From the IMG/VR virus record IMGVR_UViG_3300042453_003986, positions 14,042 to 78,041 of that record: a DNA stretch of 64,000 nt; one strand, written 5' to 3'. The stretch's first letter is position 1. Every line of letters starts with the position of its first letter. Position numbers and translations under genes: made by a program. The notes below the pieces were generated by a model. It did no database searches, had not been told where the DNA came from, and saw only the letters and a list, made by a program, of their open reading frames with translations. Origin of the DNA: a virus. Positions 30,801 through 64,000 of this stretch are shown one piece after another.

Positions 30801-33800
30801 GGCTTCTTCACGAATAGCCAGCTCAGTGCCTAGCTGAGCTCTTTGTTGACTAGATAAGTCATCTCTGCTTAACTGAGCGCGCAACCGCTCAATAGGTGCC
30901 ATTGGTCGTTCTTCGTCATCTATAGCAAGTTTTGTGCGCTTAATTTGGTCCTCAAGGTAGGTAATTGACGCTTGAGTAGCGCCGTTTACGCGCAACACGG
31001 CCAATTGATCTTGTAAGTTTCGCAGCTCGAGCAGTCGTTTTTGCTTTTGAGCTGTCCGGCGTTCAGGGAAAACACCTACTGCTTGCCGAAGCTGCTCACC
31101 AGCTGCCTGTGCGACTGGATACCGCTGCTGCGCCAGCTCTTCAATAGTTAATGGAGCTTGCTCTTGTTGTCTGCGGACTTCAGCTAATTGATCTTGTGTG
31201 CCAAGTATAGCTGCCATGAAGTCTAACGGAGATTCAGCCATCTCAGCCGCCGAAGCGCCGCTGGCTAAATACGTTAAACCTTGTACAAATGTATTATTTG
31301 GGTTGTTTAGTTCCTCTGCAGAGAGCATTTTATACGTTTTTGACAGCTGTAAAAACTCAGGTGCCACTGTGTCTGATTCTAATATTTTACGAGCTTCTTC
31401 AGGAGAACCTACGCCAAGCACACCGCTAGCATACTGCGTGTATGCTGCTTGCAGCATTGGGGAAATAGCCTGAAGAATACCGCGCATTCTTTCCACAGTA
31501 GAATCTTTTTTAGAAGCCGCCGCAAGACCCTCTCGTGCACGAGAACTGTTCAACACTTGTGCAATACCGGGTGCTACTTTAGCAATTTCTTCAAGTAAAA
31601 AAGGCACTTCTTTAGCAGGCACTGAAGACAGTGATTTCACGATACCTAGCAACGGCAAGTCTCGGCGGCCTACGTCGGTCATCGCATAAAAAAGTGTTTG
31701 CAGGTTATTTAAAGTCATCTGCGGATTTGTTGCGTAAGCTTCCCGAGCTCGCGTAACGTCAAAATTCCCGCTCTCGTCTAAATAAGCACTGGCAATTTGC
31801 GCGGCGGGTAGACTTCCTCCAGCAGAACCTCTCTGCACACCTAGTCCAAAGTAATCAGAAAAAAACTCTAGAGCGGCATACGGTTGGCCTCCAGCTGTGC
31901 GCTCTCGAGCACGCTCAAATCCTTCTATACCCAATCCTTTAATTTTTGCGATTGGGTCGGCTGTTCTCCCGTCCTCTGAGGTGTAACCCGCCAGTGCATT
32001 TTCAAGGTACACTGCGCTGCTTTGCGTTTCGTAAGGACGTTCTCTTCCCGCTAATCCTTGTTCTTGAAGATTTTGAAGCAGACCAGCTGCATAGTCTACA
32101 ATTTCTGGTGCTGCCGCAGGAAACGGAGTAAAAACGTGACTTCCATACAGTGTCGCTAAAGCAGTGTCGATGCTAATACCCTCTCCTGACTGCACTCCGG
32201 TGACAAGGTAAGCGCGCTCTTGTGGGCTGGTCTCGCTTGATGTTATTTTTCTTACAAAGGCTATTTGGTTTTTTACCTCTCGAGCACGATGGTTTAACAA
32301 CGCTCGAGATTCGCCGCTAGCTGCCTGTACAGCCTCTCTTTCAAGTTTTACACTCTGTCGTTCTAAATCCTCTAAAAGGCGCTGTATAAACAATTGAGCA
32401 GGAGTAATTTCAGTGTCCTTTGAAGATTCTCCAAAAAGCTGTGCAACAAATTCTTCTGGATCCGCACTTACATCTCCGTTTTGTACATAATTATTGATAA
32501 GTTCCGCTGCGTACAGGTTACTGACTTGCTGCACTCCTCCAGCGCCGCCAAACATGCTTGTAAACGACTTTCCAGTAATTCCACCACCGAGCACGCCCGA
32601 ATATGTAGAGGCTCTTTTTGTAGCTTGCACAGCTGGAGCAAACTGCTCTGCAAGAGCGCGAGGTAGCTGCACTGCTTTACCTCCAACGGAAACAGTTACT
32701 ACGTCTTTTTTCTCGATCTGCTCTTGTACTATTTTTCTTAACTGGGTAGTAGCAGCTTCTGCACTAAGAAGAAACTGAGTCGGAAAAACTGCACTACTTT
32801 GGAATCCAGTAATTTGAGAGCCTACTTTAGTGTCAATACCCTGTGCTTCTTGCCTGTATCGTCTACGCGGATTTAAGTTTTGAACAAACGATTCTATTGC
32901 CCTAAATGTGCTAGAAAATCGCTGAGTAATTGCAGAATTTACTTCGTCAGTATGGTCTGTATCGGTGGAGAGGTACACTGTTGCTCGTCCGTCGTCAGAC
33001 AAGATGTCCTCGAGTCCCACTTTTAACGTCTGCTCAACTTGGTTCACGCCTTGAGGAGGGAGAGTCCGTCCAGCTGCAGTCAATCGTTTAGTGTTTACGA
33101 CTGCTTGACGTAGGATTTTACGAAGCCGGTTTCCTACATTTTCTGTAAGCTTGACTACTGCACTGGCCGTTCCTCCAACTAGCTGTGGAGCTGTCATTCC
33201 CCCGCCCTCTAAAGCATAGCCGATTGAAGAAAGCATTGTCGAAGCTATTTGTTTTAACAGTGCAGAAATTTGCTCTTGTACATCTTTTTCGTCAGGCGCT
33301 TCTTTAAACGTTTCTTTAATCGCATTTTTAAGCACTGTTAAGTCTGCCGTTGCTACTGCTTTGTACAAGGAAGGCTGCTCTGCTTCAGGTACTGTAGTTA
33401 AGTAATCTTTCAACAATGCGGCAAACGTTTCATAGTCTTTAGAACTATTTCGCAAGCTTGGAGAAAACCCAAAAACGCGCCTAAACAAAGAGTTGTCTAT
33501 TGAAAAGTTGGAAGGACGTTCCGAATAAATAAGCGGGACTGGTCTTTCTGCGGGCGCATCAGTGCTTTCCGTTTCTTTATAAAACCGACTGCGTCTGCTT
33601 GACGGTGCTGTAGATTCGGTTGGTCGTTCGGTGATTCTACGCGTGTCGGTTACCTCGCTCATCGAAGAAGCAGCCGTTTTTAAATCTCGCGTTACAGCCT
33701 GCACCATACTTTGGATAGTTCTAAGAGTATCCGCACGATCAGCTGGTGTAATAGCGTTGTTTCGAACGTCGTCCACAAACTGCTCTAACGCAAAAACAGC

Positions 33801-33983
33801 GAGAGTTACACGCTCTTGAAAATCTGATCCCAAACGCGCTGTCGGGTTTACTCGCTTAGCCTCAGCACCAAAATCTGCAGAAACACCAGACAGTGCGCTT
33901 TTAGCTTCCTCTGAATTTTTTTCAACAGCCGTAAGCAAGTTTACGATTTGCGTTAATTGACTAATTGTTTCTTCCATAATCAC
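18858..33983 (-). CDS. Giant tape-measure-like protein (5041 aa) with DEDDh exonuclease and thermonuclease domains
   Basis: Follows major tail and chaperone genes; helical and Ala/Gln-rich; TMP-like motif AFDPAQGMEGASIAIKEFLSGN..SLSRRF; embedded nuclease motifs. Confidence 0.85.
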   Translation of the reverse strand: MIMEETISQLTQIVNLLTAVEKNSEEAKSALSGVSADFGAEAKRVNPTARLGSDFQERVTLAVFALEQFVDDVRNNAITPADRADTLRTIQSMVQAVTRDLKTAASSMSEVTDTRRITERPTESTAPSSRRSRFYKETESTDAPAERPVPLIYSERPSNFSIDNSLFRRVFGFSPSLRNSSKDYETFAALLKDYLTTVPEAEQPSLYKAVATADLTVLKNAIKETFKEAPDEKDVQEQISALLKQIASTMLSSIGYALEGGGMTAPQLVGGTASAVVKLTENVGNRLRKILRQAVVNTKRLTAAGRTLPPQGVNQVEQTLKVGLEDILSDDGRATVYLSTDTDHTDEVNSAITQRFSSTFRAIESFVQNLNPRRRYRQEAQGIDTKVGSQITGFQSSAVFPTQFLLSAEAATTQLRKIVQEQIEKKDVVTVSVGGKAVQLPRALAEQFAPAVQATKRASTYSGVLGGGITGKSFTSMFGGAGGVQQVSNLYAAELINNYVQNGDVSADPEEFVAQLFGESSKDTEITPAQLFIQRLLEDLERQSVKLEREAVQAASGESRALLNHRAREVKNQIAFVRKITSSETSPQERAYLVTGVQSGEGISIDTALATLYGSHVFTPFPAAAPEIVDYAAGLLQNLQEQGLAGRERPYETQSSAVYLENALAGYTSEDGRTADPIAKIKGLGIEGFERARERTAGGQPYAALEFFSDYFGLGVQRGSAGGSLPAAQIASAYLDESGNFDVTRAREAYATNPQMTLNNLQTLFYAMTDVGRRDLPLLGIVKSLSSVPAKEVPFLLEEIAKVAPGIAQVLNSSRAREGLAAASKKDSTVERMRGILQAISPMLQAAYTQYASGVLGVGSPEEARKILESDTVAPEFLQLSKTYKMLSAEELNNPNNTFVQGLTYLASGASAAEMAESPLDFMAAILGTQDQLAEVRRQQEQAPLTIEELAQQRYPVAQAAGEQLRQAVGVFPERRTAQKQKRLLELRNLQDQLAVLRVNGATQASITYLEDQIKRTKLAIDDEERPMAPIERLRAQLSRDDLSSQQRAQLGTELAIREEAFNKYRFSDVGLDEGFGTDDFLARMRRKIEYQDAESAIPAELQQLHNRAFYETDSKEKEKLAEQIFKRAETLTEEERGKYDKFLELEKERRIRAAQYAQESSVFYGRASEGFEAQGALSFDPQAEMRDSYAVDDFVEEVIKGTPLARMVRSVEVSDQTYRRSAFDLDTLLFGDTSYSAAEASKAAQKQLAELPKDSSTSWEVQSAKEDILKLEAEINAYETEINEIETQAKKKKDQVNKAADEEISPVNEKIQSLKTQIAAIENREGQDTETDYDKFNVSMDLQPLKLELGQAEINAKSIEHERQYALGEIQRQHYTGLLKHSKKLAEEKRDDTKRSVSYPVVGIDYYKLPNEWVARVEGTEPKDIATALSQSFTGKEIPPELESAQTELAQLQEQVEAKLQERKSIAASAAPVRLEKIRRELADLREAARAGTVPADADYHAKISYLMQLEKEAEQEDPQVVNTALKTIDQQIESLKAQAAKIPRQAGDALVSRVAAERLRTSLFRRRQYLYSQLNINPKDSLLGLYRQRKETSSPQAARLLTRLITSSPLYQQLRFDLDYDDEKMNALFDTLLLKQDMAEQEAVGPTEADREFTTQALASYLQRARESDYALPENFDEAENRRALQMLQAKKSRGDSLTMQEQADYSQYRKYERNAQIRKAHQLVTNQPSAEPLVDFLKILYASLPQDYNLTGDKPEMIAKDVRIRNLLASIAELTDPASFQALAMIMNPRTSGRALDRAIASLPAADRAIINEAIAVLQEETNPGLALATSEIGKGMQEAQITDAVQIAAAEVAADKRRSGTSAASTSGRTAATKQKQDELDKAIKKRRDEEDAARKERRDRKEAAIREYRDREDAEIKKRRDEEDAARKERRDEREAALREYRDKEEPALKSQRDKEDAEIKERRDEEDAARKEKRDERKAALKEYRDREDAARKEKSKMKALALEVQASGEDIQTTWANPHYFAEYLKRFYIGEEIPPEVESALAELDQLDKQYDAASKIVGEVHLFGGTLEDYQKAQASKEEMNRTVSQAQKIQKQVGDALVSRLAAEEQQDESDAEIKERRDKNDELNKKKQDELDAAIKSQRDKEDAALKEQRDSEDAARKERRDEPDAARKERRDNIDELDKKKQDELDNVIKKQRDREDAARKERRDKNDELTKKKQDELDNVIKKQRDREDAARKERRDTIDAGIAAVIDVVGFDLETTIPKPGETAQILEFASVGGGKTATGAFATEVQSTMGSKEGPALSAKEIQKARSRLQRSAESGKTIVGHNIKEFDLPILFGGAENVPTIVQNQAVDTLQMANELQLPGSRTLGSLATLFGLEYDPTRLHEAAYDTDLNVRLYHELVKAQQEQKSNADQFSKNMLKRFFAQSQLTDEQKKLLQPLVTARRGYATDKVKQTSANLAYMLAHARRLDALKTASISGKGELQLFDSENRPITDQNYIKSVLAMFGHTLDTEISPEELRRMQDEAAKVTSMFDPYRVDGSLDTVYNLFNSVAGSVVGKGPAGVGASRYTTEAFSYLRSLVGAADMSLDPAALRSLLSRWGSFSAHGDMDKVTTPAAAGAAVLASALTDATAPTITARPSTERKPAEVSGVDITKATLTGERGAAAERVLRADELIGIAEEKATQSSEELKRQEQAVNDASAYVARVQKIKDWMTRRYAKYPSRLISINAKVAHGEDNLRKAEQTLKEMETVVTAATAEKEAAFAEKSEAVSALELITTKKEAYEEEKLAVSEPSVASVSDTPESSVTVVESTLDDKAVAEMAGEITSTRTRKPRASGKESRKKHESAESVGSGSSGSGSGGGGGAVSATISGGAEFSGPVTITNLDARNLEVASIEKATINATNVNLSLHSGASLGSIEVKQILTKEAVSSKSRSPLTIENYHAGSVARQNIQSAPGAVFGGGGFGGGGGGGYYGKNPALLARENELSVLRNNFQERRGQFAGLDDAAAQQQLKQQTSDFIKESLRLIQSDVLQTDKYTAGTAAEAPRVALKSAIDEMIDPANEAAVAANFGSRLEAIAGLVKQYVDTLDTSTLPEDVAKAAKSEIDGLNRTVQSAREQGYYTLTAVSKDQTSIDNAARNKAREDEAAAREAARVDEADKRKRDIVANESRKNAMLTAKGVLGSARTAFDLAGGELNGQTFAVGRAELIKTTVDALRDTTELDALSTVVSGLASAEPDNVREFTAALNQLNQAADDANLTEAATAFAKLTKVAADLQERVTASTTLTDAEKQSAMSALTLFTSRASQTDYIKPTAGVIEATERKRMSVLEEQLQAAAGRPGFFGLRRDSTQRRLLKEYAQERFGQAGADIMYNDRSMRFQARTENGGRIDLIEASAEDLKRLQEDLGNAGAPIGLEELQKLQNVMSRTQQTRNQTPFADPLFFAASRIRDIQTLGMTAMSALSLPSTIAGIIDQAASPALNAVRSMTSLRGLSRDQGVFNKAVAAASEQQALFGGSLTSNIGNITSFIPLTNAYGVDISQVVNVARKLAAFDPAQGMEGASIAIKEFLSGNVASLSRRFEINRSALSKIDIGNATEMLDKLDEVLAQMGVTDQLINEAANSRAAQYDKMLGRLETMGIKVSEFAVGVATPLLESILGPSSVLGEMADTSTINLMRDEGLKFTGSKALSKLADVDMYAPDLSTFTRQVDKVLQEANDEIALAAASYQKTTGVTPLVSPYRLLENMKPEERVQFRNMAQANRLFKGMTTEQALMQASRDMGGDYASYQEFVNQRKLLPTNRMSYEQMIKSDRFTELKADAEKAMIDEVARGAGGAFRPGILTALASPSTFLVGSLIASGVESASRSGASLKRATIGKVTDLDTFRTTSGERVRLVGIDAPETGSKAAIKAMSKAVEVGLRENENITYEAGGFDKYGRTLAVVYNEQGQMINSELIARGIAGAMTDNQAVNSFASFVADQGIGVVNEAAAKAGLGGLPVISDEVKRAYYMQTYFGGIGGTAGSVGTAVGGGMLTNATIGALAGSKMFAGSAAASAAAGAGIVGTAGLAALGAGVAAGGYALITRAIDLNDVSVEKMRQLYKMQTEFEKNQRMQNKFDSVYLANAGFSGNRETLINNELKKTRGRFIPNTKISEALAASGLTQAAYDEASTAIEKLYNQQDEQGKSILGTVVLSPDGTEMVSLTEALTQSLAFAQDANLRDTAVGKESQRLIGVGNELIDNADIIQLAQKYGLGITPSELGLNNNQLEALGLLESPAVLGRDYREAAQAAQGVSTQLTATQMARFLTSEQIKTYSDAMRQRLLNDPTYQVQAKEYMDQQFDQELQRKQQRFNTFAEQTALNNAMGLFGSAGPLSASQVMNSQFMRTSFADEGAKSALNDAVEESIKTFNAVSKHNKSMAELMGPYVSTFQTTFANYVAGFSRAGSAANTLRDYMSNGDPLFALNEMRRISGLDWRSMISQQMFLPQASSSAQLAQIPYYEMRRAFQPIDPRVARGADRLAGMQLPYTSGPRGRLAYANMIASNASITSLMNPAELMNVYSMGIQAQTELAQRNFQHNTQMRDLAINHNRSLEDITRNAFRQLEGIHLNATRQMVQAVQQRELSKRQSLAQNYSQLGSANMAESDRRKIDQVAQAGKKFADQAEQSNPAAFLRFQGRYSSESTALLEKAFTAYDRLPITDLAGRDAAWAQVIKYRDQVVSEMTELMKTADPETRANLQAQAALLGRDPERGAQAQQFADQQVATMIQRAESEKALRLRREDLLRQQRYSGLEYQGLVQNMQAAQQSGDPLQIQQAARALSDFNIQQQRLSEEIQQINRELQNMIDVAPLWSDFWTQGYVNIEETTSTTMSGLINQYEDFNIGLKQQIEDALINLARQKDDLVRSFTDAATEIATQVPATMAKGVAAIMQYTNDMTAVEGLISRGRFDEANNLASAANNRLALSLYGSTETPEAKTLKAQLSVNAREVPTAFDAYSVDTPEGKALRVYTVSTTSPAKPPKDRPFPMPSGQGILQ
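27230..28350 (-). repeat. 33-nt (11-aa) tandem charged repeats inside the giant protein
   Basis: Units such as DEEDAARKERR, DREDAEIKKRR and DERKAALKEYR; recurring nucleotide string tctcgtctttctttacgtgctgc. Confidence 0.9.
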
Positions 33984-55352: not shown

Positions 55353-56810
55353 ATGCTGAAAGCACTCGTACAGAATGAGACGGTCACCAACAACGGCATG
55401 GCGGCCTACCGCTCAACAAACTCGGCCTGTTTAGACCTGTTCTACAAGATCGGGGCAAGCCGCGGGAAGGACATCACTCAGCCGTTTTTTGCTGCCTATC
55501 AGGAAAACCGCGAATTAGCTCTTCGCATTGCCCTTTGGGCACGAGACGCACGTGGAGGTGCGGGCGAACGCCAAGTGTTTCGCGACATCTTGGTTATGCT
55601 CGAAGAGCTTGACCCAATGCTGGTGCGGCTCTTAATCCCACGCATTCCTGAGCTTGGCCGCTGGGATGACCTGCTGGTGTTCAAGACCAACTGGGTGAAA
55701 TCTGCTGTCTACAGCTTTATTGCCGTAGCCCTTGAAGCAGGGGATCGCCTCTGTGCCAAGTGGATGCCGCGAAAAGGCCCTGTCGCAGCGGAACTGCGGC
55801 GCGTATTGGGGAAGTCTCCTCGCGAGTACCGCAAGTACTTGGTAGAGCGCACCCATGTCGTAGAGTCGCAGATGTGCGCCCGTCAATGGGACCGCATCGT
55901 GTTCGACACCGTACCCAGCTTGGCTAGCGCCCGGTACCGCAAGGCGTTTTGGCGGAACGCCGAAGAGGCATACCGCACGTACGTTGAGGGCTTGGCCAAC
56001 AAGACCCGCAAGGTACATGGCAACTTGTTTCCTCACGACGTGGTTCGCTCAGTGCTCTTCTCAGAAGCCACTGATCCTGCGTTTCGCGCACTTGAGGAGC
56101 AGATGATCGAAGCGCAGTGGGCCGCTTTGCCGACCTACTTGCAAGATGCTCGTATTCTTCCGTTAGTCGACGTCAGCGGGTCGATGACCTCGCCGATTTC
56201 GGGGAAGCTGCGGGCGATGGACGTGGCCATTTCTTTGGGTTTGTACTGCGCAAGCAAAAACACTGGCCCATTCAGTGACTTGGTCATGACTTTTTCAGAG
56301 GTACCGACGCTGCTGTCTCTGGAAGGATCGGTCGTCGAAAAAGTGCGTCAGCTGGAGAGCGCTCCTTGGGGTATGAACACCAACTTTGCTGCCGCCTTGC
56401 AAGAGCTGCTGAGCCTTGCCCAGCGAGAGTCTGTGCCCCAGTCAGAGATGCCGGAAGTACTGTTGGTGTTGTCCGACATGCAGTTCGACTCGGTGGAGTC
56501 ATACCGCAGCAAGAAGACAACTGCTCTTGCAGAGGTACGTGAGAAATACGTGCTTCACGGGTACACGCCGCCCACGATCGTGTTCTGGAACCTCAAAGAT
56601 GAGGACAACGTACCGGCCACCCTGCGGCACGACAACACGGTCTTGGTAAGCGGCTACTCACCCGCGTTGCTCAAGAGCCTCTTGGCCACGTTACAGGCGG
56701 TTCGCGGACAGGACGCGCACGCTCGTACACAAGCGCTGCAGAACCTCTCGCAGGCCATGATGTACCTTACGGTAGACGTCCCACGGTACGATCCTCCGGT
56801 ATCCGTCTAG
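55353..56810 (+). CDS. DUF2828-family TROVE-like + vWA domain protein
   Basis: T.NG..ST.SACLDLF, ARD.RGG.GER, GRWDDL, AKW.PR, MIDAS DVSGSM, WGMNTNF, SDMQFD, IVFWNL, VSGYSP. Confidence 0.85.
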   Translation: MLKALVQNETVTNNGMAAYRSTNSACLDLFYKIGASRGKDITQPFFAAYQENRELALRIALWARDARGGAGERQVFRDILVMLEELDPMLVRLLIPRIPELGRWDDLLVFKTNWVKSAVYSFIAVALEAGDRLCAKWMPRKGPVAAELRRVLGKSPREYRKYLVERTHVVESQMCARQWDRIVFDTVPSLASARYRKAFWRNAEEAYRTYVEGLANKTRKVHGNLFPHDVVRSVLFSEATDPAFRALEEQMIEAQWAALPTYLQDARILPLVDVSGSMTSPISGKLRAMDVAISLGLYCASKNTGPFSDLVMTFSEVPTLLSLEGSVVEKVRQLESAPWGMNTNFAAALQELLSLAQRESVPQSEMPEVLLVLSDMQFDSVESYRSKKTTALAEVREKYVLHGYTPPTIVFWNLKDEDNVPATLRHDNTVLVSGYSPALLKSLLATLQAVRGQDAHARTQALQNLSQAMMYLTVDVPRYDPPVSV

Positions 56811-56870
56811 TCGACTAGCGCAACGGCCTCAGATTGGCCACCAGCCGCGATCTGCGGCACTTCTCCCTCT

Positions 56871-56902
56871 CCCCCTTACTCAGAGTAAGGGGGTGCTTTT
56901 TT
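56871..56902 (+). terminator. Intrinsic terminator
   Basis: CCCCCTTACT/AGTAAGGGGG hairpin then TGCTTTTTT. Confidence 0.75.
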
Positions 56903-57140
56903 GTGCCCGCAAAACGGCGCTGGTGATGGCCACGACCGAACGAGGGGCTGACAGGAGCAGGGGCCAAAACGGGTCGGTGGGTTTTTAAAATTTGTGAGGG
57001 TCACAGGGGAAATAGGGGGGAGACTTGTGACTACTTTGTGACTACCATGCACAGTAGTCAACGGTCAGACTAACAGTTAGTACTGACTGCTTGTGACTTG
57101 CAAATGTCAAGTCACCGACGTCCGCAGAAAGGACAGTACC

Positions 57141-57449
57141 GTGAAGATCATCATCCACCCCACCGCCACCGCCGACCTTGCCCGCATCCCCGCCGCCCAC
57201 ATCCTCGTCAGCCTCCGGGCTGACGGCATGTACGAGGTCTCGATCTCGGTCGACCCCGAGGTCGAGGTCTTCGAGACCATCGACCCCGAGATCGAGGTCT
57301 TCGAGACCATCGACCCCGAGATCGAGGCGATGGACGACGAGATCGAGGTCGCCATCGACCCTGAGGTCGAAGTCGACGTTGACGACCAGTATGAGTACTG
57401 GTACGAAGACGAAGACGACTGGGAAGTCGTCGACGTTGAGGTCGAGTAA
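57141..57449 (+). CDS. Highly acidic repeat protein
   Basis: GAAAGGA RBS + GTG; (I/V)DPE(I/V)EV repeats (30-nt tandem units). Confidence 0.7.
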   Translation: MKIIIHPTATADLARIPAAHILVSLRADGMYEVSISVDPEVEVFETIDPEIEVFETIDPEIEAMDDEIEVAIDPEVEVDVDDQYEYWYEDEDDWEVVDVEVE

Positions 57450-57450
57450 G

Positions 57451-57560
57451 CAGCGAAACACGTCTCACTCAGTGCGATTGAGTGAGACGTGTCTACGGTT
57501 GTTGCTCATAAGAGTAACGTAAAATTGATCCGTACTGATGAGCTGTTTCAGTATTCTTAC
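57451..57560 (+). ncRNA. Type II hammerhead ribozyme, copy 1
   Basis: CAGC-GAAA, 14-bp stem III, GTC site (cut after 57493), stem I TACGG/CCGTA, CTGATGA, GCTG; loop I TAAGAGTA pairs with 3' tail TATTCTTA. Confidence 0.92.
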
Positions 57561-57575
57561 AGCAAGGAGTTTGTC

Positions 57576-58016
57576 ATGTTGAAGTTGCTTAAGCTTGTGT
57601 TTGTATTCATCGTCCGCGCAATCATCGTCGCCGCAGCAGTCGCAGCGGCTGTCGGCACCATCGTCGAGCTTTCGCTCGGTGAGGGTGTTGGCTACTTGGT
57701 AGCTATTGTCCTCGGCGTCGTTATGCTAATCACGCCTGCTGTTGAGGCAGTCGTGCGGTCAACACAGCTCATCAAGGCGGGTAACCGCTTCGAGGCGGCT
57801 GTCGCAGCCTTCATGGCTGCGCAAAGCGAGTACGCCGAGCGCAAGGCGTTGGCTGAGGTCCGCGCTGAGTGGAAAGCAGTCCACGGGGTCCTCTGGGAAG
57901 TTGAAAAGTGGTACGGCTGTTCAGCAGCTGCAAAGCGGATGACCGCCGACGTCCAGTCACGCGTATTCGCTTGCGAGCGCGCACACGAGAACAGCCGGCA
58001 CGGCAACAACTGGTAG
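57576..58016 (+). CDS. Two-TM membrane protein, paralogue A
   Basis: AAGGAG RBS; two hydrophobic helices; LWEVEKWYGC. Confidence 0.7.
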   Translation: MLKLLKLVFVFIVRAIIVAAAVAAAVGTIVELSLGEGVGYLVAIVLGVVMLITPAVEAVVRSTQLIKAGNRFEAAVAAFMAAQSEYAERKALAEVRAEWKAVHGVLWEVEKWYGCSAAAKRMTADVQSRVFACERAHENSRHGNNW

Positions 58017-58025
58017 TTGTTGCCC

Positions 58026-58057
58026 CTGCAACGCTCACCTGCAGATATGGATGTGAG
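58026..58057 (+). ncRNA. Pseudoknot motif B, copy 1
   Basis: CTGCA-acg-CTCAC-c-TGCAG-atatggat-GTGAG. Confidence 0.6.
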
Positions 58058-58116
58058 AAGTATTGTCTGCGGACTACACAGTGTAGATCCGCTTAGCTCT
58101 TGAAAGGAGCACGGCT

Positions 58117-58350
58117 ATGCCAATCTACTTCATCTTGACCAACGGCTGTATCCGCGGCTTCGGCAGCGAGGAGATTTACCACATCGGGGTTGACCCCGAG
58201 GTGGAAATCAGCCAGCTCCGTCGGGGCGAATTCGTTCGCCTCGAGTGGAGCCTCTACCGCGTTATCTCGGTAGACGGGAACGAGGCTGTGTTGGCGCGGT
58301 CCAAGCGGTCGAAAGGCCGCTGGGCGCGCGCAACGCGCATCGGCCGCTAG
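58117..58350 (+). CDS. Hypothetical protein
   Basis: GAAAGGAG RBS; 77 aa. Confidence 0.65.
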   Translation: MPIYFILTNGCIRGFGSEEIYHIGVDPEVEISQLRRGEFVRLEWSLYRVISVDGNEAVLARSKRSKGRWARATRIGR

Positions 58351-58460
58351 CAGCGAAACACGTCTCACTCAGTGCGATTGAGTGAGACGTGTCTACGGTT
58401 GTTGCTCATAAGAGTAACGTAAAATTGATCCGTACTGATGAGCTGTTTCAGTATTCTTAC
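58351..58460 (+). ncRNA. Type II hammerhead ribozyme, copy 2
   Basis: Identical to copy 1, 900 nt downstream; predicted cut after 58393. Confidence 0.92.
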
Positions 58461-58475
58461 AGCAAGGAGTTGGTC

Positions 58476-58961
58476 ATGTCTACACTGTTCAAGATGATGT
58501 TCGTGTTCGTCACGATGGCGTTGCGTGCCATGGCGATCGCCATGGCGATCGCCATTCCGTTCGGGGTCGGCTACGAGTGGTGGTTAGGCCACGGCAGCGG
58601 ATACTTGATGGCTGCGGCCATCGTGGTCCTTCTGCCAACATTCGCTTTCCTCCACGGCCTCTGGGTCGTGGGGAGCCTGATCCTCGCGAGCAAGCGCCTT
58701 CAGGAGGAGTTCAACATCCTCCGCGACATGCTTGCGGAAGGCGCCGGTTGGAGTCTGCGGGAGCAGCTCCGCGACGTTGTCGACGCCCGAAACGCCGTCT
58801 TCCAGAATCTCTGGGAGATGGAGAAGTGGTGGCTTTGCGATGTGATCGCGCGCGACATGATGTCGCGCATCGATCGCGAACGCCGCACCCTCGAATACGC
58901 CGTAGAGCGTAACATCGAGGCGGCACAGGCACGTCGCAACTCCAGCGATTTCCGCTGGTAG
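58476..58961 (+). CDS. Two-TM membrane protein, paralogue B
   Basis: Same RBS context as paralogue A; LWEMEKWWLC. Confidence 0.7.
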   Translation: MSTLFKMMFVFVTMALRAMAIAMAIAIPFGVGYEWWLGHGSGYLMAAAIVVLLPTFAFLHGLWVVGSLILASKRLQEEFNILRDMLAEGAGWSLREQLRDVVDARNAVFQNLWEMEKWWLCDVIARDMMSRIDRERRTLEYAVERNIEAAQARRNSSDFRW

Positions 58962-58970
58962 TTGTTGCCC

Positions 58971-59002
58971 CTGCAACGCTCACCTGCAGATATGGATGTG
59001 AG
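58971..59002 (+). ncRNA. Pseudoknot motif B, copy 2
   Basis: Identical to copy 1. Confidence 0.6.
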
Positions 59003-59031
59003 AGTATTCACGTTTAGCCTTTAGAAAGGAG

Positions 59032-59217
59032 GTGAACACCATGTACGATCCCGACAAGGACGAGGTCATCGAGGAAGAGATGGCAGAGTTTTCAGCTCTT
59101 GAGCAGGTCGCAGCTGAGCTGCGCGCGCAAGGGCTGGGCTGGGAATGTCCCTACTGCTGCAGCGACGTCGCTGCAGCGATGGAGGCATGCCGCGAGTGCG
59201 GCTATCCCAGCCTCTAG
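59032..59217 (+). CDS. Small acidic Zn-ribbon protein
   Basis: GAAAGGAGG RBS; CPYC..CREC. Confidence 0.65.
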   Translation: MNTMYDPDKDEVIEEEMAEFSALEQVAAELRAQGLGWECPYCCSDVAAAMEACRECGYPSL

Positions 59218-59225
59218 CTGTCCGC

Positions 59226-59255
59226 CTGCAACGCTCACCTGCAGTAGGATGTGAG
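59226..59255 (+). ncRNA. Pseudoknot motif B, copy 3
   Basis: Same stems, shorter linker (taggat). Confidence 0.6.
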
Positions 59256-59286
59256 AAGCATTTGCGTCTAGCTTCTTGGAAAGGGG

Positions 59287-59499
59287 GTGAATAGCATGGC
59301 GCGATTAAGCCTCCCGATCATGGAGGCCGTGGCCTTGGCTCAGGTCCATTACGGATCGAACGCCAAGATCCGGCCGCAATGGTCGGCTGAGCACGCGCTG
59401 TGGGTAGTGGTGCTGCCACCCAACCCGCAGCGTGGGCTTGTCGCCGCAGCCTTCGAGGCTGCTGGCGTATTGGTGCTGGCCGAGATCCGGCCAGCGTAG
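59287..59499 (+). CDS. Hypothetical protein
   Basis: Purine-rich RBS; fits between spacers. Confidence 0.55.
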   Translation: MNSMARLSLPIMEAVALAQVHYGSNAKIRPQWSAEHALWVVVLPPNPQRGLVAAAFEAAGVLVLAEIRPA

Positions 59500-59557
59500 T
59501 TCGCCGGGGCGTACTCGTTACGTAGTGCGCAATGCGTAGCGAGTATGCTCCCTGTCC

Positions 59558-59586
59558 TTGCGGCCTTCATAGTATGCCGCTATAAT
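59558..59586 (+). promoter_or_regulatory. Possible sigma70-type promoter
   Basis: TTGCGG-17-TATAAT, the same hexamers as the promoter at 41548. Confidence 0.45.
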
Positions 59587-59666
59587 AGAATTACTATGAC
59601 CACTGCGGAATACAAGGTACCGTTCCGCGACCTTATTCTAGGTACCTGATGAAAGGAGCTTGCCGT

Positions 59667-59909
59667 ATGGCAAGTCTATTCATCGCGGCCTTGGCCGCAC
59701 TAGTGGCCGCATCGGCCACAGCCGCGTACTACCGCGGCACCATCGCCGCCCACGCCGCCGTCCGCTTGGCCTTGCGGGCCAAGCGTGCGGGCCGACGCGC
59801 CCGCGCCAGCCGCATTGCGCGCTGGCATCGCAAATCAGCGCTTCGCCGCGCTGAGGCGCGCGGTGCACGAAAGGCCAAAGCGCAGGTTCGCCTGCGCCTA
59901 GGCCTCTAG
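59667..59909 (+). CDS. Small membrane-anchored Arg/Ala-rich protein
   Basis: GAAAGGAG RBS; hydrophobic N-terminus and very basic tail. Confidence 0.6.
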   Translation: MASLFIAALAALVAASATAAYYRGTIAAHAAVRLALRAKRAGRRARASRIARWHRKSALRRAEARGARKAKAQVRLRLGL

Positions 59910-60038
59910 GCAGCCGGAGTAATGGGCGTGTACTCCGTTAACAAAACTCTGCCCACCATTGCAGACGTGATGCACCTGCGACAATGATCTTGCATCCTGG
60001 CCTACGGGCCAGCGAACGACGAGAAAGGAGGACGTCCT

Positions 60039-60161
60039 ATGGCTAGACTACACGGGTTACGGCTACCGTGCCCTCGTACGCCTAGCCGCAGTGCATGGCT
60101 AGTCCGCTTCTGGGCCCTCGCAGACGGACTGGCAGGTTACAGGAGGGCAGAAAGGAGGTAG
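60039..60161 (+). CDS. Possible 40-aa peptide (not in ORF track)
   Basis: GAAAGGAGG RBS; MARLHGLRLPCPRTPSRSAWLVRFWALADGLAGYRRAERR. Confidence 0.4.
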   Translation: MARLHGLRLPCPRTPSRSAWLVRFWALADGLAGYRRAERR

Positions 60162-60162
60162 G

Positions 60163-60576
60163 ATGATCGAAATCCTCCTCGCCTTGGTGTGCTACTCAGG
60201 CGGCAGGTGCGAAGAGCCCTCGTTGCCGATGGCATACGAGGCGGCGGTCGTCGCGATGTGCGAGAGCGGCGACACGCTACGATTGGGCTCCCTCGACTGG
60301 GAGGCCGTCAACGTCAACGCCGACGGCACGCGTGATACGGGCGCGTTCCAAATGAACTCGTATTGGGTGTGGTCCGGAGAGGACCGCTGGTTCATCAACC
60401 AGCTCGCGTGGGAATTGAAAATGTCCCCCGACACCCTGCTTGCAGCGTGGCCAACTGCAGGTGATGCGCCCCCGGCAGCGCAACTCAGGGCCTTTTATCT
60501 GTTATGGGACGAGGGCCGTGGCTCGTCCCATTGGGCGGCATCTCAGCACTGCTGGGGTCCGCTACTGGGGAAATAG
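60163..60576 (+). CDS. Secreted lysozyme-fold / lytic transglycosylase-like protein
   Basis: Signal-like N-terminus; CESG, N.N.DGT.DTGAFQMN..W, G.SHW....C. Confidence 0.65.
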   Translation: MIEILLALVCYSGGRCEEPSLPMAYEAAVVAMCESGDTLRLGSLDWEAVNVNADGTRDTGAFQMNSYWVWSGEDRWFINQLAWELKMSPDTLLAAWPTAGDAPPAAQLRAFYLLWDEGRGSSHWAASQHCWGPLLGK

Positions 60577-60578
60577 CT

Positions 60579-60800
60579 ATGTCTAATGAACATTACGTGC
60601 TTAGCGCACGTAGCCCAGAGTGGCTGGTCGCACAAATTCGCCGCGCAGGTCTCTGGGCACGTGTTGGCGAGGACTATGGGACGGTGATCGTCCCGGCCGA
60701 CCGGAAACGCCTCGCCGAAATCTGGAGAGCGCTGGGCGGCGGCCCTAGTTACCGCCCGTGGGAAATGCTGAGCGAAATCGACGGCAACTTCGCAGAGTAG
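60579..60800 (+). CDS. Hypothetical protein
   Basis: ATG 2 nt after the previous stop. Confidence 0.55.
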   Translation: MSNEHYVLSARSPEWLVAQIRRAGLWARVGEDYGTVIVPADRKRLAEIWRALGGGPSYRPWEMLSEIDGNFAE

Positions 60801-60806
60801 CTCAGC

Positions 60807-60838
60807 CCGCAAGGCTCACCTGCGGATATGGATGTGAG
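60807..60838 (+). ncRNA. Pseudoknot motif B, copy 4
   Basis: CCGCA/TGCGG (compensatory change) plus CTCAC/GTGAG. Confidence 0.6.
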
Positions 60839-60871
60839 AGTATTAGACGCGCAGAAAGAAAGGAATCTAAC

Positions 60872-61642
60872 ATGCGCACAATTTCAGCTGGGATGGGCTT
60901 CGGCCTGTCCATCCAAAACGGCCAGTTGGTTGGCCACAACATCAGCGTGGGGCGCTTCGCCTGCGACCACGTCGCGGCAGGTGCCGTGGGCGTCGCTGTC
61001 AACTCGGCTACGGCTGAGCTGACGGCGTTTGTCCGCCGCCCCAGCGAACAGCTCGGGGCGTTGGTAAGCAGGTTCACCGACGAAGTGTGCAAGCTCAACT
61101 TGTACATTATTACCGACGTAGCGGTCTCTGACCGCGCGATCGGTCTCATTGGGCAAGACGCTTACGGATACCGCTTGGTCGTGGTAGGCTACGCGGGCCT
61201 ACCGCATCAGTCGGCTGTCAGCGACCTTATAGTCGACGACGGTCGGCTGTTCCAGCCAGACCCGTCAACGACAGGGTGGCTACTTGCCGTCAAGTCGCCG
61301 CTGCGCTGGCAGGTCACTAACGTCGCTCCGGCGTTGACAGTCACCAACGAGTGGCTGTACTCTCCTGAGGGGGAAAAAGCGCCGTTTAGCCACTACAGTC
61401 CCGACACCGGGCTGGAGTGGACGCACTCCGAGTACCACGGGGAGTGCGTAGCGGCATACGCTGACTACGTAGCCACCCTGAACGGCGGCGTGGTCTACCC
61501 CTCAGCCAACTTGGGCAATCAGTACCAAGTGCGGTACATGCCCACATGGAGGGGCTGGAAAGACTTGGCCTTCGGTCATCAGTGCGGCATCGGCCGTGCT
61601 GAGGACGGTTCTGTGCACTTCTGGGGTACGCAGCCCCAGTAA
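60872..61642 (+). CDS. Hypothetical protein
   Basis: GAAAGGA RBS; 256 aa. Confidence 0.65.
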   Translation: MRTISAGMGFGLSIQNGQLVGHNISVGRFACDHVAAGAVGVAVNSATAELTAFVRRPSEQLGALVSRFTDEVCKLNLYIITDVAVSDRAIGLIGQDAYGYRLVVVGYAGLPHQSAVSDLIVDDGRLFQPDPSTTGWLLAVKSPLRWQVTNVAPALTVTNEWLYSPEGEKAPFSHYSPDTGLEWTHSEYHGECVAAYADYVATLNGGVVYPSANLGNQYQVRYMPTWRGWKDLAFGHQCGIGRAEDGSVHFWGTQPQ

Positions 61643-61647
61643 GTGCA

Positions 61648-61683
61648 CCGTGGAGTCGAGTAACCACGTTAAAATACTTTCAG
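61648..61683 (+). repeat. Intergenic motif D, copy 1 (36-nt exact repeat with 63037-63072)
   Basis: CCGTGGAGTCGAGTAACCACGTTAAAATACTTTCAG; CGTGG/CCACG stem. Confidence 0.75.
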
Positions 61684-61706
61684 TGTTATTAGTATGGAGG
61701 TGCGTT

Positions 61707-61808
61707 ATGTTGATCAACAAGTTGATGAAGGCAGGGTTTAAGCCCCGCCGGTCGACAGTGAACCGCTGGCTCGCTCCCGTGCGGAAGTTCCGCCGGGTAG
61801 TATGGTAA
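61707..61808 (+). CDS. Small basic peptide (33 aa)
   Basis: GGAGG RBS; MLINKLMKAGFKPRR... Confidence 0.5.
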   Translation: MLINKLMKAGFKPRRSTVNRWLAPVRKFRRVVW

Positions 61809-61818
61809 GGAGAAAACT

Positions 61819-62238
61819 GTGGAAAACATCATCATGCAGGCGGGCGACGAGGTCCGCGTGTACTGGAACAGCCGGAAACGGGTGTTTTCAGTACAAGTTC
61901 GCGACACCCAGAACCGCTGGGTCGTCGCCGGCTACACGAATAGCCTTGTGCTGACCGACGTCACCTTTACGGTGAGCAAGGCCGGGTTGGCCCGTGCTCG
62001 TCGCGAAGGTGTCAAGAATGTCCACGCCTATGTGCGTGGGACCGTGCCCGCTGATGATCTGTTCACGCGCTGGGGCGTGGACAACTGCACGGCCAGCGTG
62101 TACTACAGTTACCACGTCGGTAGCTTCCACACCCGCGCAGGTGTCCATATCGACGACGCACGGTACGCCGTGTTAGCCGTCGAAGACGCCCGCCCCGTCA
62201 TCCGCGTGGCCCCGGTCACTGAGGTGGCCGAGGTCTAG
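61819..62238 (+). CDS. Conserved phage hypothetical protein
   Basis: VRVY.N....FSV...L.DV.F.VS.AG..R..REG.KNVHA.V.G, recognised as a common phage family of unknown function. Confidence 0.65.
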   Translation: MENIIMQAGDEVRVYWNSRKRVFSVQVRDTQNRWVVAGYTNSLVLTDVTFTVSKAGLARARREGVKNVHAYVRGTVPADDLFTRWGVDNCTASVYYSYHVGSFHTRAGVHIDDARYAVLAVEDARPVIRVAPVTEVAEV

Positions 62239-62243
62239 TTCAT

Positions 62244-62270
62244 CCGGAGCAGGTAACCGGTCAACCTTGC
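62244..62270 (+). ncRNA. Pseudoknot motif C, copy 1
   Basis: CCGG-aGCAGGTaa-CCGG-tca-ACCTTGC. Confidence 0.55.
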
Positions 62271-62295
62271 GCTTTAGTAACAGTAGGAGTGTGCC

Positions 62296-62772
62296 ATGGA
62301 AATCAAGCTCACTTACCAAGTCACCGACACTCACGGCAATGCCGTCGAATTGGAGGTGCAGCAGTTGCTGCTGGCGGTTCCTTCCCAGAAGGAGCTGTTG
62401 GAATGGTGCTGGTCCGTTGTCCGCAACCAGCGTTGGGAGTTCGTCTCCCAATGGATACTGGAAGTTGACAAGGAGGTCGTGGACATCCCCGAGTGGGGGT
62501 TGAAATTCGTGCATACGTCCGTCACCAATGGCTTTGCCATCGAAGACGGTGGAGTCGAGGAGTCAGTCTTTTGGCTTACTAAGCCGTTCGTCTCCTTTAC
62601 GGCCGAGGAGCTGAGCAGTATTGAAAGGGAGTGGTCCCATCGAGATGATAACTGCGTGTACAAAGCACCCGGGATGCACTCGGGCGGCGTCCTCATGGAC
62701 GGCTTGCCCACCGGGGCGCCAGTAATCGAGTTGTCGGTTTACGTCCGCGACGTTTTGCCGTACAGCCGCTAG
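62296..62772 (+). CDS. Hypothetical protein
   Basis: AGGAG RBS; acidic, 158 aa. Confidence 0.65.
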   Translation: MEIKLTYQVTDTHGNAVELEVQQLLLAVPSQKELLEWCWSVVRNQRWEFVSQWILEVDKEVVDIPEWGLKFVHTSVTNGFAIEDGGVEESVFWLTKPFVSFTAEELSSIEREWSHRDDNCVYKAPGMHSGGVLMDGLPTGAPVIELSVYVRDVLPYSR

Positions 62773-62777
62773 TTTGT

Positions 62778-62804
62778 CTGGAGCAGGTAACCAGTTAACC
62801 TTGC
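62778..62804 (+). ncRNA. Pseudoknot motif C, copy 2
   Basis: CTGG-aGCAGGTaa-CCAG-tta-ACCTTGC. Confidence 0.55.
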
Positions 62805-62826
62805 GCTTTAGTACAAGAGGTGCATT

Positions 62827-63030
62827 ATGTGGCAACTTCTCTACGCAAACGCGCTTCTCGCTGTGTACATGCAGGACACCGCTAAGGTGCCTGCGTATCG
62901 GGTGGTGTTTAAGGGCGAGCAGAAGGTGTTCCGGGGGCCGAACGCTCGCTGGGACGCCGCCGCCTACATCCGTGAGCTGGACTGGGATACGTGGGCATCC
63001 ATGATTTCCCACGAGATTGACTGGGAGTAG
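62827..63030 (+). CDS. Hypothetical protein
   Basis: GAGGTG RBS; 67 aa. Confidence 0.6.
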   Translation: MWQLLYANALLAVYMQDTAKVPAYRVVFKGEQKVFRGPNARWDAAAYIRELDWDTWASMISHEIDWE

Positions 63031-63036
63031 TACTCC

Positions 63037-63072
63037 CCGTGGAGTCGAGTAACCACGTTAAAATACTTTCAG
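63037..63072 (+). repeat. Intergenic motif D, copy 2
   Basis: Exact copy of 61648-61683. Confidence 0.75.
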
Positions 63073-63093
63073 CTCTACTGTATGGAGGTTGTT

Positions 63094-63510
63094 ATGGAAT
63101 GGACACGAGGCGAGTGGGCAAACCGCGGCTACGTAGATAGCCGCCCCCGGCCGTTCGACGCCCCCGACATCCGGGCTACGGAGCAGCTGCTCCGCAACAT
63201 CAACCCGCAGACTCCGATCGACCCCGAAGGAGCGGTCGGATACTGGGAAGTTCCCAACTTCACTTACCGGCCTATTTGGGCACACGTCACCGTAGTGACA
63301 CCCCGTCGCTATGCGACATGGGAGGTAATGATGGTTCCGGTACGGGATCTCAAGTGGCAAGGCGACCCGAACGTCGAGCGCGCTATTGAGCGTCTCTGGC
63401 CCCGGGCTACGAGGACCGTTGTTTGGTGGCGTGGGTTTTTCGGGAACCGCACGCCGACCACTGTCGACTACGTCAAGCGGTTGCTCCACTACCGCAACGT
63501 CGTAGAGTAG
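63094..63510 (+). CDS. Hypothetical Trp-rich protein
   Basis: GGAGG RBS. Confidence 0.65.
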   Translation: MEWTRGEWANRGYVDSRPRPFDAPDIRATEQLLRNINPQTPIDPEGAVGYWEVPNFTYRPIWAHVTVVTPRRYATWEVMMVPVRDLKWQGDPNVERAIERLWPRATRTVVWWRGFFGNRTPTTVDYVKRLLHYRNVVE

Positions 63511-63515
63511 CTGTA

Positions 63516-63542
63516 ACGGAGCTGGTAACCGTATAACCTAGC
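63516..63542 (+). ncRNA. Pseudoknot motif C, copy 3
   Basis: ACGG-aGCTGGTaa-CCGT-ata-ACCTAGC; compensatory changes in both stems. Confidence 0.55.
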
Positions 63543-63564
63543 AGTGTAGTAAGAGGAGATTGTT

Positions 63565-63933
63565 ATGGGTTACAAAGTTATTGTGGTTTCGCGAAGTAAG
63601 GAAGTGTTCTCGGCGTTCACGCTGGACGTGTACCCGGTAGCTTCTCACGAGGAGGCTATTAAGCTGGTTGAAGATGCAGACCACAGTCTGCGCCAATCGT
63701 ACGCGTGGGTCCCCGGAGGGGATTGGTTCTACGCCGCGAACATCCTAGCCTTTGAGGTCACTCCTCGGGGCGACTGCGAGTTTGGGTTGCGGTATTTCTG
63801 TTTAACCGATGAAGAGGTCGCTAAGGAGTGTGCAGCGCGCAAAATGGACGTAGCTAAGTGTATGGAAACCCGCGCGGCTATACGCGCTAAGCCCGCGGAA
63901 CCGTACGCGTTTATTGCTCGGTTCAAGAACTAG
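63565..63933 (+). CDS. Hypothetical protein
   Basis: GAGGAG RBS; 122 aa. Confidence 0.65.
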   Translation: MGYKVIVVSRSKEVFSAFTLDVYPVASHEEAIKLVEDADHSLRQSYAWVPGGDWFYAANILAFEVTPRGDCEFGLRYFCLTDEEVAKECAARKMDVAKCMETRAAIRAKPAEPYAFIARFKN

Positions 63934-64000
63934 TTTTCCGAACGCCGATGAAACGTACTTTCGGCATACATCAAAGGAGGTACTCATATGGAGTACACAG

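Follow-up and report, generated by a model that had tools for sequence, protein, structure and literature searches.

The DNA analysed here (the window, 64,000 nucleotides, nt) is the right end, positions 14042-78041, of IMG/VR record IMGVR_UViG_3300042453_003986, a complete virus of 78,041 bp. It contains part of a run of small + strand genes (the array, about 29 genes over about 13 kb) with compact RNA elements encoded between the stop codon of one gene and the ribosome-binding site of the next. An element was present at 13 of the 16 gene junctions in the window part of the array. The first-pass annotation of this DNA had described elements in most spacers: two hammerheads, four copies of motif B, three of C, two of D and several one-off H-type pseudoknots. 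All were found where it had placed them, and the array proved larger than described. The contig ends repeat over 73 nt, so that the contig is circularly permuted; the array, which covers 57093-64000 in the window, crosses the contig junction and ends at about genome position 6367.

Hammerheads and pseudoknots in the spacers

Two spacers carry a sequence with the fold of a type II hammerhead ribozyme:

57451-57559, + strand, hammerhead 1, stem II 1 nt past a TAA stop, stem III of 16 bp, predicted cleavage after C57493
58351-58459, + strand, hammerhead 2, directly past a TAG stop, predicted cleavage after C58393

Both stem I and stem III are closed and stem II is open. The core (CUGAUGA, CGAAAC, GUC) is present in both copies; relatives have CUGACGA, in which N7 is free, and a GUA site. 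Both copies were aligned over the full length of the Rfam model Hammerhead_II (RF02276, 1-66 of 66), with CGAAAC, GUC and CUGAUGAG all in place. The scores (25.6 bits here, 27.6-28.9 in relatives) are under the gathering cut-off of 37 bits, a shortfall caused by long insertions in stem III (16 bp) and loop I (about 31 nt). Loop I of hammerhead 1 (UAAGAGUA, 57509-57516) pairs with the tail UAUUCUUA (57552-57559), directly 5' of the Shine-Dalgarno (SD) sequence, and the relative G001 has the loop I/tail pseudoknot 3' of stem II as AAGAGU/GCUCUU. This tertiary pseudoknot is needed for fast cleavage (Perreault et al., 2011; PMC3088659).

The equivalents in G001 and G002/G003 differ in the sequence of all three stems and have the same core (three sequence versions). 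Stem II covaries (CAGC/GCUG versus CGGC/GCCG), and stems I and III are wholly different in G003 and still paired. An explicit type II hammerhead descriptor was run on the sequences, with the reversed sequence as control. It gave 23 matches in 16 loci against none in the control. All 23 start 0-4 nt past a stop codon, and their stem III of 12-16 bp is far above the Rfam consensus. Judged by core, topology and covariation, the two spacers hold genuine type II hammerheads, and we infer that they would cleave themselves in vivo.

The hammerhead spacers 57451-57575 and 58351-58475 are 100 % identical over 125 nt. The paralogous membrane-protein genes 3' of them are only 30 % identical, which points to gene conversion or to recent copying of the spacer alone. 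In G001, an element at L006:4051-4166 is hammerhead-shaped, with the stems intact and the core broken (CUGACUUCG replaces CUGANGAG); it may be either a decaying copy or a non-cleaving structural version.

Hammerheads are known to flank genes in phages and prophages, and a role in transcript processing was proposed for them (Perreault et al., 2011; PMC3088659). This part of the array has thus been known in kind since 2011. The elements described here share with those hammerheads the type II topology, the complete core, the loop I/3'-tail pseudoknot and a place between small phage genes of varying identity, where processing of long transcripts was proposed. They differ in the length of stem III and loop I, and in that only 2 of about 27 spacers are hammerheads, the others holding non-hammerhead pseudoknots.

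The first of these pseudoknots, family B, consists of stem 1 (S1, 5 bp), A-N-G, stem 2 (S2, 5 bp), C, the second strand of S1 (S1'), N2-6 followed by GGAU, and S2'. Four copies and one associated hairpin lie in the window:

58026-58057, + strand, family B copy 1, S1 CUGCA/UGCAG, S2 CUCAC/GUGAG, 9 nt past TAG
58069-58092, + strand, extra hairpin GCGGA-CUACACAGUGUAG-AUCCGC between copy 1 and the SD sequence, found by reading
58971-59002, + strand, family B copy 2, covariance-model match
59226-59255, + strand, family B copy 3, with a short loop 3 (L3), UAGGAU
60807-60838, + strand, family B copy 4, S1 CCGCA/UGCGG, compensatory

Copies 1 and 2 are identical, the last codons of the preceding gene included. 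Hairpins of the GCGGA/AUCCGC type after family B recur in G001 spacers, and 6 of the 35 family B contexts taken from metagenomes have one too. When metagenomes were scanned with a pattern, 43 fully paired instances on 27 contigs were obtained; a covariance-model search yielded 93 instances, 70 of them distinct. In the alignment, 98.8 % of 677 cells were paired, 68 cells were compensatory and 6 of 10 pairs had changed on both sides. The model encoded S1 only; S2, which was not fitted, was 99.1 % paired, with three covarying pairs. Shuffle and slide controls were all far lower. The loop nucleotides A.G, C and GAU are invariant while the stems covary. The family B core pattern was also sought in 185,579 bacterial and archaeal species, each represented by a single genome. 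Among the 11 hits, none had a convincing pseudoknot context and 10 had broken pairing. No prophage or host was therefore identified, and family B appears, as far as these genomes go, to be phage-only. The candidate L211 pairs fully and was rejected as a GC-rich sequence without a stop codon or SD sequence, like the likely false match L182.

Families C and D are represented by five copies in the window:

62244-62270, + strand, family C copy 1, S1 CCGG/CCGG, S2 GCAGGU/ACCU-UGC, 5 nt past TAG
62778-62804, + strand, family C copy 2, S1 CUGG/CCAG
63516-63542, + strand, family C copy 3, S1 ACGG/CCGU, S2 GCUGGU/ACCU-AGC
61650-61679, + strand, family D copy 1, hairpin GUGG/CCAC with loop AGUCGAGUAA, then GUUAAAA, then UACUU
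63039-63068, + strand, family D copy 2

Six copies of family C are present in the genome, three in the window and three beyond the contig junction. The family gave 19 hits overall (17 distinct), with 97.6 % pairing and 5 of 10 pairs changed on both sides. For family D, 50 hits (37 distinct) were obtained; a near-exact pattern scan of viral contigs for motif D gave no match. In the seed, every S1 cell is paired (100 %), and this stem covaries. Between loop and tail, 18 different complementary pairs were seen, always at one fixed position, among them GUAAGCGG/UUGCUUAC, GUCAACGG/UUGUUGAC and GUGGGCGG/UUGCCCAC. The best-helix test for stem 2 gave a mean of 5.9 versus 4.7 in shuffles and is weak for the 5-bp versions; in the subtype found in the window, stem 2 is shorter and ambiguous (GAGUA/UACUU versus AGUC/GACU).

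Families B, C and D had 91-100 % paired cells, and neither any of 500 shuffles nor any slid register reached their covariation. Dozens of phage contigs from metagenomes carry them, in arrays that also contain hammerheads of the same orientation. The covariance models and metagenome searches that the first-pass annotation had put forward as a check thus returned recurring, covarying families. The elements stand beyond chance by the pair counts of B, C and D and by the hammerhead descriptor, and the pseudoknots do fill the same slot as true hammerheads, as it had claimed.

Families E and F lie mostly outside the window. One hairpin of family E is the first of the elements that continue into genome positions 1-5.6 kb:

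63944-63965, + strand, family E hairpin GCCGA/UCGGC with loop UGAAACGUACUU

Among the members kept for analysis, which were only those with the conserved loop, E and F form hairpins whose stems covary and whose loop reads G-N-A-A-C-(A)-G-U-(A)-A-C-U-U. The hairpin descriptor gave 110 matches versus 64 in the control. Family F also forms a 5' pseudoknot, in which one compensatory change separates G001 from G000. Families C, D and F have a common plan, S1, AG, S2, (G)GNAA, S1', ..ACUU, S2', with AG, GNAA and ACUU as invariant loop nucleotides. On contig Ga0315905_10006159 (L175), eight family E hairpins occur in one array, with the invariant loop GGUAACGUACUU, GAG(C/U) upstream and eight different stems. 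These loops contain the 4-nt palindromes ACGU and GUAC, so that loop-loop kissing between copies is conceivable.

Several pseudoknots occur once each. They were found by reading, and so was a promoter-like site in front of one of them:

59558-59586, + strand, internal sigma-70-like promoter TTGCGG-17-TATAAT, under the promoter-scan threshold, in a 167-nt spacer
59605-59646, + strand, one-off leader pseudoknot, hairpin GCGGAA/UUCCGC, loop GGUACC pairing with a downstream GGUACC
59915-59955, + strand, one-off pseudoknot a, S1 CGGAGUA/UACUCCG, S2 UGGGC/GCCCA, A-rich L3
59960-59996, + strand, one-off pseudoknot b, S1 UGCAG/CUGCG, S2 GAUGCA/UGCAUC

The pairing of the one-off pseudoknots in spacers 59500-59666 and 59910-60038 is kept in G001 via compensatory changes. 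The leader pseudoknot is AGUACC/GGUACU there, and pseudoknot b is UGCGG/CCGCA and GUAAUGC/GCAUUAC. Pseudoknot a is related to the 8-bp subtype of family D and has its G001 ortholog at L006 5105. The leader pseudoknot follows the internal promoter, so that no cistron in front of it would need protection.

Position, strand and operon

Elements were found to start 0-4 nt (hammerheads), 5 nt (C), 6-8 nt (D) and 5-13 nt (B) past the stop codon. For family B, the range of 5-13 nt was seen in 34 of 34 non-redundant metagenomic members. The SD sequence lies downstream at a variable distance, about 10 to 50 nt from the element (about 13 to 50 nt in family B). Since the distance to the stop is fixed and the distance to the SD sequence is variable, the position of the elements is anchored to the stop.

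The stop codons themselves are biased. In the array, 23 of 28 are TAG, five are TAA and none is TGA; elsewhere, the 44 genes with products of 120 aa or more end in 7 TAG, 20 TAA and 17 TGA (Fisher p = 2.5e-8 versus the array). Of the 34 non-redundant family B members from metagenomes, 24 are preceded by TAG, 10 by TAA and none by TGA. TAG and TAA stops are read by release factor 1 (RF1).

Within each contig, the elements of every family point the same way as one another and as the hammerheads, and the stems include G.U pairs, which places the structures in the sense RNA and not in duplex DNA. Together with the compensatory changes, this speaks against the possibility, raised in the first-pass annotation against its own proposal, that the motifs act only as DNA elements.

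The upstream boundary of the array is marked by a terminator:

56871-56903, + strand, intrinsic terminator with a 10-bp GC-rich stem and a T-tract, closing a Ro-like gene

This is the only strong + strand terminator in 56700-64000. Only two strong intrinsic terminators were found, this one and that at genome 6380-6416, one per array end. Promoter-like sites within the array are at chance level, apart from 59558-59586, which G001 keeps as TTGACG-17-TATAAT. The statement that U-tract terminators are missing inside the array therefore stood, as did that of few promoters, with this sigma-70-like site as the exception. Because strong terminators stand only at both ends, the array was considered as one operon. 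A long early or accessory operon, giving one or two long transcripts as first supposed, is the best explanation of these sequence features. The few recognisable array genes (L5 gp82-like, ArdC-like anti-restriction, GP88-like) are typical early or accessory genes.

The genome encodes a DNA polymerase, a ribonucleotide reductase, portal- and capsid-like proteins and a 5041-aa open reading frame (ORF), which is a single ORF on the - strand (window 18858-33983). DNA of this uncultured freshwater phage was found in lake and estuary metagenomes; for cultured relatives, neither a DNA match nor a portal-protein match was obtained in the phage collection.

Directly 5' of the array, the 485-aa gene 55353-56810 has DUF2828 and DUF7788/VWA domains and falls in PHROG 850, 'RNA-binding protein', Ro60-like. 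A Ro60-like gene is kept upstream of the arrays in G001 and L096, and 334 relatives were counted in viral contigs. From its domains and place, a link between this putative Ro-like RNA chaperone and the structured-RNA array is possible. The first array gene (57228-57374) contains five tandem coding repeats of 21-30 nt, giving acidic peptide repeats of the DPE(I/V)EV type. The gene 59667-59909 encodes a protein of 80 aa that is hydrophobic at the N-terminus and extremely rich in arginine throughout its C-terminal half; it might be located in a membrane or be an RNA-binding peptide of the arginine-rich kind. The G+C content is 57.5 % in window 56000-64000 versus about 47 % in the remaining genome, which suggests that the array module has a different origin or is under different constraints.

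Comparison with known RNAs

Rfam 15 at gathering thresholds returned tRNA only. A search of 20 spacers by themselves, at the most permissive filter settings (E <= 1), gave only the hammerheads and a resemblance of motif D to DUF805 RNA. Models of the twister, twister-sister, pistol, hatchet, hepatitis delta virus-like and hairpin ribozymes and of the preQ1, SAM-II and guanidine-III riboswitches gave no match (E <= 1 on the spacers, E <= 10 on 7.2 kb). Membership in known Rfam families, which the first-pass annotation had named as the outcome that would speak against it, was thus not found for any pseudoknot in the spacers. A 2023 IMG/VR catalogue lists 8,495 unnamed structured-RNA candidates (PMC10690425); the pseudoknot families look undescribed and may stand among these.

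Motif D was tried as DUF805 RNA (RF03081) and rejected: it scored 24.1 bits against a gathering score of 51.1, and no other motif was hit. The likeness consists of a 5' hairpin GUGG..CCAC with a similar loop, then UUAAAA, with the SD sequence further 3'. DUF805 RNA is not mentioned in the main text of PMC5737381, and no paper on it was found in the literature collection searched.

A second resemblance is to coremin, or xrRNA-C (exonuclease-resistant RNA), of plant viruses, a small RNA suspected to be a pseudoknot, which stalls the exonuclease Xrn1 (Dilweg et al., 2019, 2023; PMC6546385, PMC10520033) and scanning ribosomes as well (PMC10520033). Like it, motif D has a short hairpin followed by the spacer GUUAAA(C/A)UAC, 9 of 10 positions being identical in the window, and its loop ends in CGAGUAA, a heptaloop reported to be Xrn1-resistant (Dilweg et al., 2019, 2023). 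The first coremin hairpin (hp1) was defined by 3-5 bp and a loop YGAD, YGNNAD or a tolerated heptaloop. In motif D, hp1 is GUGG/CCAC, and its loop ends in the tolerated CGAGUAA and has 3 extra 5' nt. The 10-nt coremin spacer GUUAAACUAC needs A15-A20; it is GUUAAAAUAC here and GUUAAACACC or GUUAAACCCC in relatives, and positions 18-20 are not kept (C18 is A in motif D, U19 and A20 are lost in relatives). Nor does a second hairpin follow the spacer, whose 3' end is paired to the loop of hp1. The phage motif and coremin differ in organism and nuclease as well. A generic coremin-like signature (hairpin, YG..AD loop and G[UG]UAAA) gave 16 hits versus 10-16 in shuffles, which is not significant, and among these hits only the family with loop-tail pairing is real. 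For both coremin and DUF805 RNA, motif D is a case of resemblance, not of membership. The exonuclease-blocking cap, one of the roles first suggested for the pseudoknots, thus gains only this likeness of motif D to an xrRNA, which does not hold as a coremin assignment.

A generic H-type pseudoknot descriptor was far too loose, returned mostly noise and was dropped in favour of covariance models. Intercistronic structures that set the ends of mRNAs and shield the 3' end of the upstream message are known from the RNase III signals of the T7 early region (R0.3-R1.3) and from bacterial stabilisers such as repetitive extragenic palindromic hairpins. The likeness is that of structured elements between the cistrons of a long early phage transcript; the known ones are irregular hairpins of some length that a host enzyme cuts, whereas the present elements are H-type pseudoknots of 27-34 nt with conserved loops. 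H-type pseudoknots also stimulate -1 frameshifting or stop-codon readthrough in luteoviruses and murine leukaemia virus. These too are compact two-stem pseudoknots 5-13 nt 3' of a specific codon, and L3 of family D is A-rich. Here, in contrast, no extension frame is conserved and the pseudoknots recur at nearly every gene boundary; programmed readthrough or frameshifting was set aside because the stop-pseudoknot phase is not conserved. Integron attC-like sites were set aside as there are no RYYYAAC/GTTRRRY cores and no integrase. ToxI-like antitoxin repeats, nut/put antiterminators and tRNA-like RNase P substrates had no Rfam match and the wrong arrangement.

Possible functions of the array

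The functions considered below for the pseudoknots are deduced from their structure, covariation, strand, position relative to stop and SD sequence, and co-occurrence with hammerheads. The reading that we tentatively favour, with a probability of roughly 0.45, is intercistronic punctuation: hammerheads would cut the transcript, and pseudoknots would cap or insulate it non-catalytically, giving gene-sized mRNA units. Each intercistronic spacer would encode a compact self-folding RNA module between the stop codon and the next ribosome-binding site. After a hammerhead cut, a 16-bp hairpin bearing a 2',3'-cyclic phosphate would form the end of the upstream mRNA, and a 5'-OH inside stem I would form the start of the downstream one. 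In the remaining spacers, a small H-type pseudoknot or hairpin (family B, the superfamily formed by C, D and F, or family E) would act without catalysis. It could serve as a mechanical end-cap that blocks exonucleases, either 3'-5' from downstream or 5'-3' (RNase J) from upstream, or as an insulator that restricts the spread of decay or misfolding between cistrons. A host endonuclease might first cut the AU-rich linker before the SD sequence. The units obtained would have their stability and translation set individually.

Several observations are in favour of punctuation. Hammerheads and pseudoknots share slot, strand and arrays; the long stem III hairpins would stay on the upstream fragment; G001 retains a hammerhead-shaped element with a broken catalytic core; and no known ribozyme or riboswitch family was matched. 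Two or more unrelated pseudoknot superfamilies and many one-offs share only the H-type topology. This fits a structural role better than new catalytic cores, since unrelated families with a common compact topology are expected if shape rather than chemistry matters. Other points weigh against it. Ordinary GC-rich hairpins suffice against bacterial 3' exonucleases, and the need for pseudoknots with invariant loop nucleotides is not explained by an end-protection model; such nucleotides point to a specific partner or a tertiary fold. The exclusive use of TAG and TAA points to a link to translation termination, which a pure stability model does not predict.

These same points are better explained if the stop-anchored pseudoknots act on ribosomes and not on nucleases, each cassette being translated independently. 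They might block post-termination sliding or re-initiation, insulate the SD sequence from upstream folding, recruit the 30S subunit or ribosomal protein S1, or be the operator of an RNA-binding regulator. With a stop codon in the A site, a distance of 5-13 nt corresponds to the mRNA entrance of the ribosome, and frameshift and readthrough stimulators have the same codon-to-pseudoknot geometry. The restriction of the array to stops read by RF1, the invariant loops within covarying stems, as for a contact with protein or rRNA, and the leader pseudoknot behind the internal promoter would all be accounted for, better than by punctuation. Coremin, which motif D resembles, also stalls scanning ribosomes (PMC10520033). 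The distance between pseudoknot and SD sequence is nevertheless variable, with the SD sequence outside the structures, hammerheads, which destroy RNA continuity, fill the same slot, no candidate regulator was identified, and the phase between stop and pseudoknot varies, so that no recoded extension is conserved. A role at the level of translation is the main rival, which we nonetheless hold to be unlikely.

Slightly more doubtful is a proposal in which the stop-anchored pseudoknots (B and the AG/GNAA/ACUU superfamily) would be a phage toolkit of mechanically or catalytically active RNAs. They would be either bacterial-world counterparts of viral xrRNAs, stalling 3' exonucleases or those of the RNase J type, or new self-cleaving classes of miniature size. 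With the hammerheads as partners, they would turn a 13-kb early transcript into individually capped monocistronic mRNAs, and the RF1-read stops would be part of the mechanism.

The repeats might also be mainly DNA-level linkers for modular gene shuffling, with RNA folding secondary. T4-type phages have comparable promoter-stem-loop cassettes. The identity of the two hammerhead spacers before genes that are 30 % identical, the identity of family B copies 1 and 2 into the last codons, and the presence of the same families beside different genes in different phages agree with such linkers. Recombination requires identity alone and no pseudoknots, however, and the compensatory changes keep pairing, not sequence; this covariation, the sense-strand specificity given by the G.U pairs and the conserved position relative to stop and SD sequence make DNA-level linkers distinctly improbable.

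Least probable of all is that any of the pseudoknot families (B, or the AG/GNAA/ACUU superfamily) constitutes a new class of self-cleaving ribozyme with the same job as the hammerheads. The pseudoknots share slot and arrays with hammerheads, contexts in which twister-sister, pistol and hatchet were discovered (PMC5737381, PMC6765202), are absent from Rfam, and in family B join a pseudoknot fold to several unpaired nucleotides that do not vary among the 70 distinct sequences. On the other hand, the elements (27-34 nt, two helices of 4-6 bp) are below any known natural self-cleaving class in size, and many unrelated one-off pseudoknots occupy the same slot. The sequence diversity is confined to one phage group, for which reason loop conservation is weak evidence for a ribozyme. 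Structured motifs near ribozymes, when tested, mostly did not cleave. Three other such motifs were stated not to cleave (PMC5737381).

The role of self-cleaving ribozymes in phage operons is a question that dates from 2011. In this array, hammerheads occupy the slot in only a minority of cases, and small, well-defined pseudoknots take it up elsewhere. The pseudoknot families are, on the evidence of alignment and covariation, well supported, widespread in one group of uncultured aquatic phages and absent from Rfam, and the TAG/TAA-only rule suggests an unrecognised link between termination and downstream RNA structure. A pseudoknot that proved to cleave would represent a new class of ribozyme, and one that proved to stall RNase J would be the first xrRNA from a phage; compact, portable insulators would serve synthetic operons. 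If the pseudoknots do the same task as the hammerheads without cleavage or via a host nuclease, the selected function would be the punctuation or capping of long early transcripts, which would be directly testable on a handful of 30-nt elements.

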